Shown: one piece after another, positions 1-14,761 of the stretch
How positions within the stretch are numbered: position 1 is the stretch's first letter
Layout: each line of letters starts with the position of its first letter
Origin: a virus
Taxonomy: Duplodnaviria > Heunggongvirae > Uroviricota > Caudoviricetes
Length of the DNA: 14,761 nucleotides
Strand: one strand, 5' to 3'
IMG/VR virus record: IMGVR_UViG_2695420589_000006
Notes under the pieces: model-generated
The model's database searches: none
What the model was told of the DNA's origin: nothing
The model's input: the letters and a program-made list of their open reading frames with translations, nothing else
Program-made: the position numbers and the translations under genes

Positions 1-82
1 TACGCCGGACCACCGTTCCGCCGACCAGACTCTGTAGATCTTCCGCCATCCCGGTGACCATACCGTACAGGTTAGAAACCAT
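1..82 (-). CDS. L: Tail tip protein L, partial: reading frame opens with ATG at 82..80 and runs off the window start; only the part matching the middle of lambda gpL is present
   Basis: Minus-strand translation from 82 gives MVSNLYGMVTGMAEDLQSLVGGTVVRR, matching the internal gpL segment I recall (…TVSNLYGMVTGMAEDMQSLVGG…). An in-frame TGA lies 5 codons upstream at 97..95. The N-terminal ~80 codons of L are not found anywhere upstream. Confidence 0.55.
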   Translation of the reverse strand, partial: MVSNLYGMVTGMAEDLQSLVGGTVVRR

Positions 83-408
83 CTCACCACCTGTTCAAAC
101 TCTGCGCTGAACTCAACACGCAGCATACTGACCCGCGACGACCATTTTGCGCAGGTCACCTTTATCTGCCGCCACTCATAAGGCGGCGTCCACAGAAAGG
201 CTTTCCAGCCCCCGTGCTCTTCCAGAAACGACTCCAGTACCATGGCCTCCTCACGGGGGACAGAAAGCGTCACGCTGTACGTTTTCAGGTTGGCATTCAG
301 CCCGGCAGGCGCTCGCTGGGAATAGCCATCACCAAAGCGCACCTTTCTTACAGAAGGGGCCGAAGCCACATCCATACCGGGTTTCACTTTCCAGCGGAAG
401 GTTTTCAT
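1..408 (-). CDS. M: Minor tail protein M; the M-homologous part is about 82..408, but there is no in-frame stop at the expected end and the frame stays open to the window edge
   Basis: ATG at 408..406 overlaps the H stop in an ATGA. Translation is MKTFRWKVKPGMDVASAPSVRKVRFGDGYSQRAPAGLNANLKTYSVTLSVPREEAMVLESFLEEHGGWKAFLWTPPYEWRQIKVTCAKWSSRVSMLRVEFSAEFEQVV, then continues as RWFLTCTVWSPGWRKIYRVWSAERWSGV with no stop. Not in the ORF track because it has no stop inside the window. Confidence 0.8.
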   Translation of the reverse strand, partial: MKTFRWKVKPGMDVASAPSVRKVRFGDGYSQRAPAGLNANLKTYSVTLSVPREEAMVLESFLEEHGGWKAFLWTPPYEWRQIKVTCAKWSSRVSMLRVEFSAEFEQVVRWFLTCTVWSPGWRKIYRVWSAERWSGV

Positions 409-2966
409 CGTCCACCTCCGGAGAACAGGCCACCATCACGCATCTGTGTCTGAATTTCATCACGGGCACCCTTGCGGGCCATGTCATACACGGCCTTCAT
501 CATCTGTGGACCTGGCAGACCATTCGTACCGTCGTTCTGAATCACCACGTGATTGTTCTGATTAAAATTAATGCCTTCAGCCCGCCGCATCTGCGCCGGA
601 CTTCCGGCACCGCCCACATAACCACCTTCCGCATAGCCGCGCATCAGCCGGTAGAGATTCCCCACGCCAATCCGGCTGGTTGCCTCCTTCGTGAAGACAA
701 ATTCACCACGGTGAACAATCCCCGCTGGCTCATATTTGCCGCCGGTTCCCGTAAATCCCCCGGTTGCAAAATGGAATTTCGCCGCAGCGGCCTGAATGGC
801 TGTACCACCTGACGCGGATGCGCCGCCACCAACAGCCCCGCCAATGGCGCTGCCGATACTCCCGACAATCCCCACCATTGCCTGCTTAAGCAGAATTTCT
901 GTCATCATGGACAGCACGGAGCGGGTGAAGCTGCGCCAGTTCTGTTCACTGCCGGTCAGCATCGCCGCCATATTCTGTGCAATACCATCAAAGGTCTGCG
1001 TGGCTGCACTTTTAACCTGTGACATACTGTCCGTGGCGCTCTCTTCCCACTCACTCCAGCCGGACTTCAGGCCTGCCATCCAGCTCCCGCGAAGCTGGTC
1101 TTCAGCCGCCCAGGTCTTTTTCTGCTCTGACATGACGTTATTCAGCGCCAGAGGATTATCGCCATACTGTTCCTTCAGGCGCTGTTCCGTGGCTTCCCGC
1201 GCTGCCTGCCGGTCAGTCAGCCCCCGGTTTTTCGCATCAATGGCTGCCCGTTTTGCCCGTTGCTGCTGTGCGAATTTATCCGCCTGCTGCGCCAGCGCAT
1301 TCAGGTGCTCCTGATACGTAACCTTGTCACCAAGTGCAGCCAGCTGGCGTTTGTACTCCAGCGTCTCGTCTTTATGCGCCAGCAGGGATTTCTCCTGTGC
1401 GGACAGCTGGCGACGTTGTGCCGCCTCCTCCAGTACCGCGAACTGACTTTCTGCCTTCCACAAATCCCGGCGCTGCTGGCTGATTTTCTCATTCGCTCCG
1501 GCATGCTTCTCCAGCGTCCGGAGTTCTGCCTGAAGCGTCAGCAGGGCCGCATGAGCACTGTCTTCCTGACGATCGCCCGCATACACCTTCACGCCGGACT
1601 GTTTCGGCTTTTTCAGCGTCGCTTCATAATCCTTTTTCGCCGCCGCCATCAGCGTGTTGTAATCTGCCTGCAGGATTTTTCCGTCTTTCAGTGCCTTGTT
1701 CAGTTCTTCCTGACGGGCGGTATATTTCTCCAGCGGCGTCTGCAGCCGTTCGTAAGCCTTCTGCGCCTCTTCGGTATATTTCAGCCGTGACGCTTCGGTA
1801 TCGCTCTGCTGCTGCGCATTTTTGTCCTGTTGACGCTGTTGATCTACCCTCTTTTGGGCTGCATCCCGCTCCAGGCGTTTTTTTTCACGATCATCCCAGT
1901 AACGCGCCCGTGCTTCATCGTTAACGAAATAATCATCCTTGCGCAGATTCCAGATGTCGTCTGCTTTCTTAAACGCAGCCTCTGCCTTAATCAGCATCTC
2001 CTGCGCGGTATCAGGACGACCAATATCCAGCACCGCATCCCACATGGATTTGAATGCACGTGCAGTCCTGTCTGCCCAGGTCTCCAGCGTGCCCATGTTC
2101 TCTTTCAGGCGGCGGGTCTGGTCATCAAACCCTTTCGTTGCGGCCTCGTTCGCCGCCTGCAATGCCCCGGCTTCATCGCCGGAACGCTGCAACTGAGCAA
2201 CATACGCAATCTGCTCCGCCGTCACGTTATGGAACTGGCGTGCCATCGCCGTCAGCCCCGACGTCGGGTCTGTGGTCAGCTTCCCGAAGGCTTCAGCGAC
2301 CTTGTCCACCTCCACGCCGGATGCAGAGGAGAAACGCGCCACACTCTGGCTGATGGACGCAATCTGAGCCTCACCGCTTACCCCCGCCTTAACCAGTGCG
2401 CTGAGTGACTCGCTGGTCTGGTTAAACGTCAGCCCTGCCGCCTGCCCGGCTCTGGACAGGACCAGCATACGATCTGCCGTCAGTCCCGCCTGATTACCGG
2501 AAAGGACCAGCGTTTTGTTGAAATCGGACAGGGTTGAGTTGCCCTGATACCAGGCATACGCCAGCGCACCGGTCGCCACCGCCAGCGAGGTGGCCCCCAC
2601 CATCGGCAGGGTGATCGCGCCGGCAAGCCCCCTGAACATGGGGATCATCCCGCCGAAGGAGTCCTTAACCTGACCACCCTGTTGCAGCAGGATCAGCCAG
2701 GGATTCTGCCCCCCTGCAAGCTGCGTGGCCACGTCGGTGAACTGTGCAGGCAGCATACGCATGGCGGCTTTATACTGCCCGACGGAAATCCCCGCTTTCT
2801 GTGCAGCCAGCGCCTGTCGGCTCAGCGACTGTTCAACGACTGCCGCTGTTTTTTTCGCATCACTTTCCGTACCGGAAAAATGACGCCTGACTCTGGCCAT
2901 CTGCTCGTCAAATCTGGCCGCATCCAGACTCAAATCAACGACCAGATCGCCTACCGGTTCAGCCAT
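405..2966 (-). CDS. H: Tail tape measure protein H (853 aa)
   Basis: ORF track 405..2966, 853 aa, begins MAEPVGDLVVDLSLDAARFDEQ; same length and N-terminus as lambda gpH. Long coiled-coil-like middle and Gly-rich C-terminus. 8-bp overlap with T upstream. Confidence 0.95.
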   Translation of the reverse strand: MAEPVGDLVVDLSLDAARFDEQMARVRRHFSGTESDAKKTAAVVEQSLSRQALAAQKAGISVGQYKAAMRMLPAQFTDVATQLAGGQNPWLILLQQGGQVKDSFGGMIPMFRGLAGAITLPMVGATSLAVATGALAYAWYQGNSTLSDFNKTLVLSGNQAGLTADRMLVLSRAGQAAGLTFNQTSESLSALVKAGVSGEAQIASISQSVARFSSASGVEVDKVAEAFGKLTTDPTSGLTAMARQFHNVTAEQIAYVAQLQRSGDEAGALQAANEAATKGFDDQTRRLKENMGTLETWADRTARAFKSMWDAVLDIGRPDTAQEMLIKAEAAFKKADDIWNLRKDDYFVNDEARARYWDDREKKRLERDAAQKRVDQQRQQDKNAQQQSDTEASRLKYTEEAQKAYERLQTPLEKYTARQEELNKALKDGKILQADYNTLMAAAKKDYEATLKKPKQSGVKVYAGDRQEDSAHAALLTLQAELRTLEKHAGANEKISQQRRDLWKAESQFAVLEEAAQRRQLSAQEKSLLAHKDETLEYKRQLAALGDKVTYQEHLNALAQQADKFAQQQRAKRAAIDAKNRGLTDRQAAREATEQRLKEQYGDNPLALNNVMSEQKKTWAAEDQLRGSWMAGLKSGWSEWEESATDSMSQVKSAATQTFDGIAQNMAAMLTGSEQNWRSFTRSVLSMMTEILLKQAMVGIVGSIGSAIGGAVGGGASASGGTAIQAAAAKFHFATGGFTGTGGKYEPAGIVHRGEFVFTKEATSRIGVGNLYRLMRGYAEGGYVGGAGSPAQMRRAEGINFNQNNHVVIQNDGTNGLPGPQMMKAVYDMARKGARDEIQTQMRDGGLFSGGGR

Positions 2967-3797
2967 ACCGGACTCCTCCTGCGATCCCTTCTGATACTGT
3001 CATCAGCATTACGTCATCCTCCGTCATGTCCGCCACATCCGGGGAAGCGGGGATAACTTCATTCCCGTCCGGGCCAAAGCGGACACCTCCGGCAAGCCCT
3101 GCCGCTTTCTGCATCAGCACATCATCTTCAGGCTCTTCGTCAGCCTCGCGCCGGTTCAGCAGACTGAAATCCAGCGGATGCATCTCCGGATCGCTGAAAA
3201 ACAGGCTGAGCACGGTGTACGTCAGCCCGGAAAAGTGCATATCCAGCAGAACATCATGAAAATAATGGGTACTGTAAAAGCGGTGCCAGTCGGCATACTC
3301 CGTGGATGACATCCCGGCAAGCATGGCGCGCCAGTCGGGTCGCCCCATCTCACGCGCCAGTTTCAGGGCAAAACTCAGCTCACCGTCGAACACTTTCCCG
3401 CAGAAACAGGCTCTGCAGGCCCGGCGTCCTCTGCCTGTTCAGGAGCATCATTCACCACAAACTCATACATACCGGACAGCCGGTACACCACGTTTTCAGC
3501 ATGAGAAATTGCCTCTGTGGGCCAGGTGGTAAGCACTTCCTGCTCAATCTGTTTAACGGCTTCATTCATGGACGGCATCTGCGTCTTCTTCGGATGGTTA
3601 TGCCACAGGGACATCGCAACCACAAAAGCGCCGGTTCTGATGGCGTCTTCCACAGTAAACTTCCGGTTGCTGTCTGACTCCGCCTGTTCTGCCTGCCGTT
3701 TCATCAGGTCGAGATGCTCAATACGCTGCAGGGCTGACAGTTCAGAAAGCGTGACGGTCACACCGTTATGTTCAAATGATTCGGTTTTCAGGAACAT
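2959..3797 (-). CDS. T: Tail assembly chaperone fusion G-T, made by a programmed -1 frameshift at 3393..3399; the T-frame portion ends at 2959
   Basis: T-frame ORF 2959..3393 (MFDGELSFALKLAREMGRPDW…) has no independent SD/start context. The slippery heptamer G GGA AAG sits in the G frame just before the G stop. This is the canonical lambda G/GT arrangement. Confidence 0.85.
3375..3797 (-). CDS. G: Tail assembly chaperone G (140 aa)
   Basis: ORF track 3375..3797, MFLKTESFEHNGVTVTLSELSALQRIEHLDLMKRQAEQ… ending AGKCSTVS. GGAGAG Shine-Dalgarno upstream of the ATG at 3797. Confidence 0.93.
   Translation of the reverse strand: MFLKTESFEHNGVTVTLSELSALQRIEHLDLMKRQAEQAESDSNRKFTVEDAIRTGAFVVAMSLWHNHPKKTQMPSMNEAVKQIEQEVLTTWPTEAISHAENVVYRLSGMYEFVVNDAPEQAEDAGPAEPVSAGKCSTVS
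3393..3399 (-). promoter_or_regulatory. Programmed -1 ribosomal frameshift slippery heptamer GGGAAAG (G-T)
   Basis: Minus-strand sequence at 3399..3393 is G GGA AAG in the G zero frame. The -1 frame reads GGG AAA GTG TTC GAC GGT… which gives KVFDGELSF, the start of the T-frame product. Confidence 0.85.
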
Positions 3798-3812: not shown

Positions 3813-4636
3813 TTAACTGGCGGTGACGTTGATTTCTGCAACCGCAGCAAACTCACCATTACCAGATACGACCGGAATGTTGACCTTGCCTGCAGCAACA
3901 CCTTTCACGGTGATGGTCATACCACTGACCGACACGGTGGCTTTTGTTTTATCCGCAGACACCGCACGGAAGCTCTTGTCGGTTGCGCCATCCGGCTGGA
4001 ATGCCACGGTCAGCGTGGTGCTCTGCCCTTTCACTACGGAAGCACTGGCGGGTGTCACCGTCATGCCGGTCGTCGCCGTCACCGTGCTGCGATCTTCTGC
4101 CATCGACGGACGTCCCACATTGGTGACCTTCACCGTGCGGGTAATCACCTCCTTCGCCGTCACCGCCTTACCGATACTGCTGACCCAGCCACGGAACACA
4201 TCGACCGTGCCGTTCGGGAAGCGGATTTTATAGGCACGGGTATCACCTTCATTAAACCACGCCAGCNNNNNNNNNNNNNNNNNNNNNNNNNNNNNNNNNN
4301 NNNNNNNNNNNNNNNNNNNNNNNNNNNNNNNNNNNNNNNNNNNNNNNNNNNNNNNNNNNNNNNNNNNNNNNNNNNNNNNNNNNNNNNNNNNNNNNNNNNN
4401 NNNNNNNNNNNNNNNNNNNNNNNNNNNNNNNNNNNNNNNNNNNNNNNNNNNNNNNNNNNNNNNNNNNNNNNNNNNNNNNNNNNNNNNNNNNNNNNNNNNN
4501 NNNNNNNNNNNNNNNNNNNNNNNNNNNNNNNNNNNNNNNNNNNNNNNNNNNNCGCATAAGGGTCACCGCTCCCCTTATAAACCCACAGGGTGGTCCCGGC
4601 ACCTTTCACCGGCATTGTAGGATTTGGTACAGGCAT
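3813..4636 (-). CDS. V: Major tail protein V, interrupted by the N-run 4267..4552
   Basis: ATG at 4636 with GAGGA SD, N-terminus [28 protein letters not shown]. After the gap the sequence reads …[40 protein letters not shown]… through to …AEINVTAS (ORF 3813..4199). The two halves are in different frames only because of the N-run length. Confidence 0.9.
4267..4552. other. N-run (286 nt) inside V
   Basis: Run of n characters in the sequence. Confidence 1.
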
Positions 4637-8459: not shown

Positions 8460-9153
8460 CCGGGACTGCAATGTTTCCCGGACATCATCCGGTAGATGGC
8501 TGTAGGGGTTGCCATCCACCTTATGGCTGCCGCTGTAAATCAGCGTGATTTCCACGCCCTGTTTCTCCAGTGCAGCGCCGTAATTACTGTGAGCCATCAT
8601 GACGCCGATGGAGCCTGTCCGGGCGGTCTGCGTGACCAGACGCCGGGAGGCGGCACTGGCAAGCAGCTGACCTGCGCTGCAGTTCATGTCATTGGCCAGC
8701 GCCCATACCGGCTTTATGTCACGCACACGGGCGATGATGTCAGCGCAGTCAAATGCTCCCGCCACCATTCCGCCCGGTGTGTCCATATCGAGCAGAATGC
8801 CGTCCACCATCGGGTCGCTGGCAGCCTGTTGCAGACGGGCGATAATGCCGTTGTAACCGGTCATCCCCGAGTACGGCTGCAGCGCCCGCGTCCGGCTGAC
8901 CAGCGTGCCGGACACCGGCAGCACGGCGATGCCGTTCATTACCTGATAACTGCGGGCCTGTCGTGGTCCGTCATCATCACCGGATAACGCCAGCGCCGCG
9001 GGTGCCTCTCCGGCAGTCAGGCTGTCGCCGGATACTGCATCCGTCAGGCAGCTGATCCCAAGCTGGCCTGCAAGCGCACAAAAGAAAACCCGCGCATAGG
9101 CGGGTTCAAGCATCAGCGGCTCATTAAAAGCCATGCTGGCAATATGCGGGAGA

Positions 9154-9173: not shown

Positions 9174-12925
<3,752 letters not shown>

Positions 12926-12951
<26 letters not shown>

Positions 12952-13471
12952 TCAGCAACCCCGGTATCAGTTCATCCAGCGCGGCTGCTTTGTTCATGGC
13001 TTTGATGATATCCCGTTTCAGGAAATCAACATGTCGGTTTTCCAGTTCCGGAAAACGCCGCTGCACCGACAGGGGGATCCCGTCGAGAATACTGGCAATT
13101 TCACCTGCGATCCGCGACAGCACGAAAGTACAGAATGCGGTTTCCACCACTTCAGCGGAGTCTCTGGCATTTTTCAGCTCCTGTGCGTCGGCCTGCGCAC
13201 GCGTAAGTCGATGGCGTTCGTACTCAATAGTCCCTGGCTGGAGATCTGTCTCGCTGGCCTGCCGCAGTTCTTCAACTTCCCGGCGCAGCTTTTCGTTCTC
13301 AATTTCAGCATCCCTTTCGGCATACCATCTTATAACGGCGGCAGAGTCATAAAGCACCTCATTACCCTTGCCACCGCCTCGCAGAACGGGCATTCCCTGT
13401 TCCTGCCAGTTCTGAATGGTACGGATACTCGCACCGAAAATGTCAGCCAGCTGCTTTTTGTTGACTTCCAT
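12926..13471 (-). CDS. Nu1: Terminase small subunit Nu1 (181 aa)
   Basis: ORF track 12926..13471, MEVNKKQLADIFGASIRTIQNWQEQGMPVLRGGGKGNEVLYDSAAVIRWYAERDAEIENEKLRREVEEL… with a winged-HTH N-terminus; it sits directly downstream of cosB. Confidence 0.95.
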
Positions 13472-13495: not shown

Positions 13496-13690
13496 AGAAA
13501 GGAAACGACAGAGGCCAAAAAGCCCGTTTTCAGCACCTGTCGTTTCCTTTCTTTTCAGGGGGTGTTTTAAATAAAAACATTAGGTTACGGCGAAGAAGAA
13601 CGGAAACGCCTTAAACCGGAAAATTGTCATAAATAGCGAAAACCCGCGCGCCTTCCGCCCCGTAACCTGTCGGATCGCCGGAAAGGACCC
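13496..13690 (-). other. cos: cos packaging site: cosB (R1 about 13496..13510, R2 about 13538..13552, R3 about 13597..13612), putative cosN 12-mer 13649..13660, cosQ-like segment about 13661..13690
   Basis: Minus strand reads …ACAGGTTACG GGGCGGAAGGCG CGCGGGTTTTCGCTATTTATGACAATTTTCCGGTTTAAGGCGTTTCCGTTCTTCTTCG…GAAAGGAAACGACAGG…CTGTCGTTTCCTTTCTCTG… and then the Nu1 ATG. The R-site motifs CGTTTCC(T/G)TTCT occur three times in the lambda arrangement. Confidence 0.8.
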
Positions 13691-13859: not shown

Positions 13860-14093
13860 ATGTCAACGAAGAACAGAACCCGCAGAACAACAACCCGCAA
13901 CATCCGCTTTCCTAACCAAATGATTGAACAAATTAACATCGCTCTTGTTCAAAAAGGGTCCGGGAATTTCTCAGCCTGGGTCATTGAAGCCTGCCGCCGG
14001 AGACTGTGCTCAGAAAAAAGAGTTTCGCCTGAAGCAAACAAAGAAAAGAGTGACATTACTGAATTGCTCAGAAAACAGGTTAGACCAGATTGA
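13860..14093 (+). CDS. Small basic protein, DUF3950 / YlcI-YnfO-like, possibly ribbon-helix-helix (77 aa)
   Basis: ORF track 13860..14093, MSTKNRTRRTTTRNIRFPNQMIEQINIALVQKGSGNFSAWVIEACRRRL…; AGGG about 8 nt upstream of the ATG. Resembles the small prophage-encoded YlcI/YnfO proteins I recall next to packaging genes in E. coli cryptic prophages. It is on the strand opposite to the late genes. Confidence 0.7.
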   Translation: MSTKNRTRRTTTRNIRFPNQMIEQINIALVQKGSGNFSAWVIEACRRRLCSEKRVSPEANKEKSDITELLRKQVRPD

Positions 14094-14150
14094 AGCAATT
14101 TAGATAATCGTGCAGACTACGCCCCCTCATATCACATGGAAGGTACTACA

Positions 14151-14561
14151 ATGGCTCAGGTTGCCATTTTTAAACAAATATTCGATAAAGTGCGAAATAA
14201 TTTAAACTATCACTAGTTTTATTCTGAACTAAAACGTCACAATGTCTCACATTACATTTACTATTTAGCCACAGAGAATATTCATCTTGTTCTTGAAAAC
14301 GATAATACGGTTTTAATAAAAGGACAGGGTAAGGTTGTAAATGTAAGATTTTCAAAAAATAAATGCCTTATAGAAGCCACCTTAAAAGGATTCAAATCAG
14401 GAGAGTTATCATTTTACGAATACAGGAAAAATCTTGCTACAGCAGGGGTTTTCAGATGGATTACAAATATCCACGAAAACAAAAGGTATTACTATACCTT
14501 TGATAATTCATTACTCTTTACTGAGAACATACAGAACACTACACAAATATTTCCGCACTAA
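14151..14561 (+). pseudogene. DUF1398 / YbcV-like gene with a single in-frame amber (TAG) codon at 14214..14216 (codon 22 of 136)
   Basis: ATG at 14151 with GGAAGG upstream. Translation is [138 protein letters not shown], with TAA at 14559..14561. The same frame is homologous on both sides of the TAG. Absent from the ORF track because of the internal stop. Confidence 0.65.
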
Positions 14562-14606: not shown

Positions 14607-14761
14607 ATGATGAAATATGTGTACCCGGTAACCCCGGTGTGCATCGTTTTTGATTATTCCCGCACACTCGCGCAGAAGGAGTTCCCCGTCGGGCTACGGT
14701 CTCTGTTAATACGGGAATACGGCGACGATTGGATTTGCCCCTATATTTCCAGACATCTGTT
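14607..14761 (+). CDS. Hypothetical protein, 5' partial ORF running off the window end
   Basis: ATGATG at 14607 then MMKYVYPVTPVCIVFDYSRTLAQKEFPVGLRSLLIREYGDDWICPYISRHL… with no stop before the window end. No convincing SD. Same strand as the accessory genes. Confidence 0.3.
   Translation, partial: MMKYVYPVTPVCIVFDYSRTLAQKEFPVGLRSLLIREYGDDWICPYISRHL

Follow-up and report, generated by a model that had tools for sequence, protein, structure and literature searches.

An amber codon interrupts a DUF1398 accessory gene in a lambda-like phage region, probably as a recent null allele

Results

The Interrupted DUF1398 Gene

The DNA analyzed here (the window) is a stretch of 14,761 nucleotides (nt) from a virus of the class Caudoviricetes, IMG/VR record IMGVR_UViG_2695420589_000006, and corresponds to the late region of a lambda-like phage in reverse orientation. 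Near its end lies a plus-strand accessory gene of the DUF1398 (YdfO/YbcV-like) family (Table 1), whose frame, 14151..14561, holds 136 sense codons (the interrupted one counted) followed by a TAA at 14559..14561, with a translation that ends in QIFPH. The only internal stop is an amber codon (TAG, 14214..14216); it is codon 22 when the ATG at 14151 is taken as the start and codon 27 when an alternative ATG at 14136 is. These features match an earlier description made from the letters of the window alone (hereafter the sequence-only reading), which had reported a Shine-Dalgarno sequence and ATG, 136 codons, a closing TAA, this single TAG, and family-like sequence throughout the frame.

The frame matched Pfam PF07166 (DUF1398) end to end when the stop was read as an amino acid (profile positions 1–119 of 119, E = 1.1e-42, 145.2 bits against a cut-off of 22), and it also matched PHROG 413 (E = 2.7e-87) and PDB 2HH8, the nuclear magnetic resonance structure of Escherichia coli K-12 YdfO (E = 2.9e-67). 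Read in this way, it fits the YdfO fold of two alpha2-beta3 repeats. The intact protein of phage PhiR49_1 is 99.3% identical to the interrupted frame; together with the full-length Pfam match, this shows the frame to be a true homologue, broken by a single internal stop, and not a chance frame.

Downstream of the TAG, the frame lacks ATG, GTG, and TTG codons, in line with the sequence-only reading, which had held that no downstream start could rescue the C-terminal part. Only ATT, ATA, and ATC codons occur there, all lacking a Shine-Dalgarno sequence, and no open reading frame (ORF) of at least 20 amino acids (aa) starts in the same frame 3′ of the stop. The protein would lose 115 of its 136 residues, and the uninterrupted ORF of about 136 aa that marks a DUF1398 member is missing from the locus. 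What is found instead is the pattern of a nonsense pseudogene, namely full-length homology to intact genes and a premature stop that costs the larger part of the domain, with no restart after it. Judged from its sequence, 14151..14561 is a disrupted member of the DUF1398 family, a homologue by descent that is predicted not to code for the protein.

Literature searches on DUF1398, ybcV, ydfO, and the lambda homologue lambdap78 yielded incidental mentions only and no established function. PADLOC gave a chance-level match, NCBIfam gave no match for the DUF1398 protein, and a first AlphaFold2 model, built from a shallow alignment, reached a predicted local distance difference test score of 49, too low to be usable. 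For the database labels “head protein” and “envelope protein”, we found no backing evidence, and we treated them as unsupported annotation transfer. In a genome-wide CRISPR interference screen, lambdap78 was non-essential for lambda plaque formation (PMC10695390), and we therefore regard the gene as dispensable.

Origin of the Amber Codon

The DUF1398 copy in the window falls in a sublineage with the motif NNLNYHW. Its four nearest phage relatives (PhiR49_1, ev099, Chlobot, and Kati), which are 99.0–99.6% identical to the window over a 500-nt region, all carry TGG at codon 22; K-12 YdfO likewise has tryptophan at this position, and lambda has TTG (leucine). Since TGG is the codon of the nearest relatives in this sublineage, the alignment identifies the event as a single G-to-A transition at 14215 that converted Trp22 (TGG) to amber. 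The sequence-only reading had given leucine as the residue of homologues at this codon and suggested a TTG-to-TAG change. Leucine is indeed the residue in lambda and in most of the family (92 of 120 cluster representatives) but not in this sublineage, and an origin from TTG was dropped for this lineage, in which the nearest phages and YdfO have tryptophan (TGG).

Among the 120 cluster representatives of the family, the codon-22 column otherwise holds tryptophan in 22, arginine in four, aspartate in one, and threonine in one, and never a gap or an end. The check proposed with the sequence-only reading, inspection of the residue aligned to the TAG in DUF1398/YbcV homologues, hence returned an amino acid in every case. 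No homologue that ends naturally at codon 22 was seen among 118 full-length relatives or the 120 representatives. Natural early termination followed by a separate downstream gene was accordingly rejected, given also the lack of a downstream start and the intact frames of the relatives.

Deamination at a Dcm hotspot is unsupported, the opposite-strand context being ACCAGT and not CCWGG. The G-to-A change also creates an SpeI site (ACTAGT, 14212–14217), probably by coincidence.

Distribution of the Amber Allele

None of 5,426 complete E. coli genomes contained an exact copy of a 60-mer centered on the TAG, although 1,064 records matched it at 95–99%; the TGG version of the same 60-mer was found exactly in 1,047 E. 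coli genome records. Similarly, a 25-mer with the TAG had no match in the GTDB representative genomes, IMG/VR, or the JGI metagenome contigs, and its TGG counterpart occurred in at least 120 IMG/VR contigs.

We aligned the window to all fetched loci and scored as private any base present in no relative. Coverage by 10 or more relatives (at least 90% identity) was reached at 9,850 window positions, and 14215 held the only private base among them. The closest relatives are nearly identical to the window: IMGVR_UViG_2693429733_000004 (L105) differs by two substitutions (7543 and 14215) and one 19-nt indel over ∼11 kb, and IMGVR_UViG_2667527914_000011 (L054) by seven substitutions over ∼13 kb. Because one of the two substitutions that separate L105 from the window is 14215 itself, about one private substitution is to be expected at this distance.

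The 136-aa frame is intact in all 118 full-length ungapped relatives. When the window was compared with close prophages, as had been suggested with the sequence-only reading, the relatives read TGG and their frames were open. The maintained frames and the near-identity of L105 and L054 indicate that the gene is normally kept and that the lesion arose no more than a few mutational steps ago.

Two of the relatives have irregularities of their own. The only other disrupted DUF1398 copy among 119 full-length relatives is in IMGVR_UViG_2617271072_000003, with a 1-nt insertion in an A run opposite window position 14235. In L105, the missing 19 nt lie opposite window positions 8880–8898, inside the C/Nu3 gene; their loss would shift the frame and reflects either a prophage defect or an assembly error.

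Genomic Context and Comparison With Known Phages

The minus strand of the window encodes H, T, G, V, U, Z, FII, FI, E, D, C, B, W, A, and Nu1, followed by cos. Past cos, a plus-strand cluster transcribed opposite to the late operon comprises a YlcI/YnfO gene, the DUF1398 gene, and a 53-aa ORF (Table 1). This is the typical lambdoid setting of the family, with a YlcI/YnfO neighbor, a position between cos/Nu1 and the lysis cassette, and an orientation antisense to the late genes. The G+C content of the DUF1398 gene is 29–37% vs. 52–57% for the structural genes, an AT-rich composition typical of an acquired accessory gene.

Table 1. Features of the DUF1398 locus and its surroundings (window coordinates).
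Feature	Position	Strand	Evidence or remark
DUF1398 (YdfO/YbcV-like) accessory gene, interrupted at codon 22	14151..14561	+	Translation; Pfam PF07166; PhiR49_1 protein; PDB 2HH8
Amber codon TAG, A at 14215 replacing G of TGG (Trp22)	14214..14216	+	Alignment with PhiR49_1, ev099, Chlobot, Kati (TGG) and lambda (TTG)
Shine-Dalgarno-like GGAAGG	14138..14143	+	7 nt 5′ of ATG 14151; read from sequence
Alternative upstream in-frame ATG	14136..14138	+	Lacks a Shine-Dalgarno sequence; used in the Chlobot and Kati annotations, 141-aa forms (141-aa cluster representatives)
YlcI/YnfO family (DUF3950) gene, 77 aa, intact, upstream	13860..14093	+	Pfam PF13132, E = 2e-20; NCBIfam NF041551; 100% identical to PhiR49_1 protein
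Small downstream ORF (53 aa in relatives), truncated by window end	14610..14761	+	tblastn to PhiR49_1 53-aa ORF; translation
Nu1 terminase small subunit, cos-proximal start of late operon	12926..13471	-	ORF translation; annotation of relatives; tblastn 98.9%

The orthologues in PhiR49_1 (XSB42959.1), ev099 (VUF54254.1), Chlobot, Kati, L105, and L054 share the neighbors of the window gene, a YlcI-like gene upstream and the 53-aa ORF downstream, and differ from it in having TGG at codon 22 and a full 136-aa protein. Lambda lambdap78 (NP_597781; “putative envelope protein” or “head protein”) lies at the equivalent location, with cos on one side and the lysis genes on the other, is likewise encoded opposite to the late operon, and is 84.6% identical to the window gene at the nucleotide level, but it is intact, has leucine (TTG) at the codon in question, and has an annotated coding sequence that starts further upstream (534 nt). 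The ORF of YdfO, a DUF1398 member from the Qin prophage of E. coli K-12, is likewise intact, whereas the window copy stops after residue 21.

Elsewhere in the window, the cosN cohesive end at 13650–13661 reads GGGCGGAAGGCG on the minus strand, with its last six bases differing from the lambda sequence GGGCGGCGACCT. Among the fetched loci, the window variant occurred in eight, the lambda sequence in 78, and a third version of the flanking bases in three. In the PhiR49_1 record (L006), the annotation splits the tape-measure gene H in two (845–3405) and terminase A (11307–13274) has 655 aa and reaches into W. The window has a single 853-aa ORF for H, and its A stops just before W, as in lambda; since H and A of the window are thus lambda-like, these frame differences belong to the PhiR49_1 record and not to the window.

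At the M/L junction (window ∼81–83, minus strand) the window has a 240-nt deletion relative to all relatives, which removes the M stop codon and codons 1–80 of L, so that L would start at the internal Met81. The 24-mer across this junction was absent from IMG/VR, and in 3,460 E. coli genomes its two halves always lay 240 nt apart. In E. coli SE11, a CTGATG hexamer lies close to each of the two breakpoints. The deletion represents either a tail-defective prophage or a misassembly.

Discussion

A Recent Null Allele as the Preferred Reading

The A at 14215 probably reflects a real and very recent G-to-A mutation, by which a lambda-like prophage lost a dispensable accessory gene to a null allele. 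We favor a recent nonsense pseudogene because the allele is private, is the only private base in ∼9.8 kb, has intact full-length relatives, and is followed by no downstream start. The sequence-only reading had offered two options, such a pseudogene or a gene expressed only in an amber-suppressing host; the evidence favors the first, and the second finds no support, with no tRNA gene in the window and the allele nowhere else in the searched collections.

In E. coli, a TAG followed by T is an efficient context for termination by release factor 1 (RF1), and amber suppressors are rare in natural isolates; it is from these two circumstances that we infer a null allele. In an ordinary host, RF1 would end translation after 21 residues; a single helix would be all of the domain that is made, and the gene would be a pseudogene at the very first step of its decay. 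The phage or lysogen would be expected to tolerate the loss of a dispensable gene. The ∼390 nt of untranslated mRNA ahead of the next ORF may in addition lower expression of the 53-aa ORF through Rho-dependent polarity.

Several points weigh against taking the mutation as real. The A at 14215 is known from an assembled consensus, in a scaffold that has gaps and whose consensus quality is uncertain; its four runs of N have lengths that disrupt the reading frames of V, B, and A. A single consensus error would also look just like this, one isolated private base that by chance forms a stop. Furthermore, the IMG/VR loci were retrieved by a 25-mer that contains TGG, so that they have TGG by construction. 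Independent of that retrieval are the alignment with the four phages and lambda, the 60-mer searches of E. coli genomes, and the searches with the TAG 25-mer.

Alternative Explanations

The strongest rival, which we consider possible although clearly less probable than a true mutation, is that the A at 14215 was miscalled or entered the consensus of a draft scaffold in error, the true gene having TGG and an open frame. The draft nature of the window is evident from its N runs at 4267–4552 (in V), 9791–10079 (in B), and 11463–11673 and 11740–11817 (both in A), whereas none of the 127 fetched loci has any. These runs exceed the homologous sequence of L054 by 83, 35, 13, and 23 nt, as scaffold-gap estimates would and length-preserving masks would not. 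The unparalleled 240-nt deletion at the M/L junction, possibly a misassembly, points in the same direction, as does the absence of the TAG allele from all of the searched collections. On the other hand, 14215 is alone among the 9,850 well-covered positions in being private, which argues that the consensus is otherwise accurate, and the nearest gap is 2.4 kb away. Between the window and its close relatives there are also one to seven real substitutions over 11–13 kb, so that one true private mutation is expected, and consensus errors are usually rarer than that.

A real amber that is read through, by a suppressor tRNA of the host (supE- or supF-like) or by leaky termination, would give a reduced amount of protein with glutamine, tyrosine, or another residue at position 22. 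Such a substituted protein could function, given that tryptophan, leucine, and arginine are all tolerated at this position across the family, and laboratory E. coli strains that carry suppressors do exist. We nevertheless judge read-through very improbable. A phage-borne suppressor is set aside for the window, since no tRNA gene was found in its 14.8 kb, and suppression by the host runs against the scarcity of suppressors in nature and the efficient TAG-T context described above. Programmed read-through would, moreover, call for a stop that is conserved among homologues, and this one is not: TAG had no match in any of the four collections, an amino acid stands in its place in all 120 representatives, and all 118 relatives are intact. 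None of the 14 other window genes checked uses TAG as its terminal stop, a count that is within expectation and uninformative on recoding. Only a slight chance, likewise, attaches to a broader version in which the amber is real and either the lysogen carries a suppressor, so that DUF1398 protein is made under some conditions or in small amounts, or the host lineage was selected for loss of the gene.

That the amber arose by deliberate or chemical mutagenesis of a laboratory phage is hardly credible, for although TGG-to-TAG is typical of hydroxylamine, ethyl methanesulfonate, and nitrosoguanidine, G-to-A being the classic route to amber, and although an SpeI site was created, the gene is non-essential and no target of conditional-lethal screens, the window has none of the further private transitions that mutagenesis would leave, and some 6-bp palindrome arises from ∼9% of random substitutions, which makes the new site weak evidence. 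Classical amber mutants of laboratory phages resemble the window in having one G-to-A change that makes UAG, and they are expressed conditionally in supE or supF hosts; they were, however, selected in essential genes after mutagenesis, whereas the window has the change in a dispensable gene, as its sole private base, and with no suppressor in evidence.

Implications

With a recent null allele as the preferred reading, the window holds a disrupted member of a known family, affected by the most ordinary type of mutation. The case is of small significance: one private nonsense allele, or an erroneous base, in an accessory gene that the prophage can do without. For annotation, 14151..14561 should be marked as a pseudogene or the base flagged for verification, and the draft quality of the assembly means that other single-base anomalies in the window call for equal caution. 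If the allele is real, it is a natural DUF1398 knockout that stands beside near-isogenic intact relatives, a possible comparison pair for an orphan family. Should loss of the gene have been selected in the host lineage, if that is true, it would offer a first phenotypic handle on DUF1398, a family without known function.
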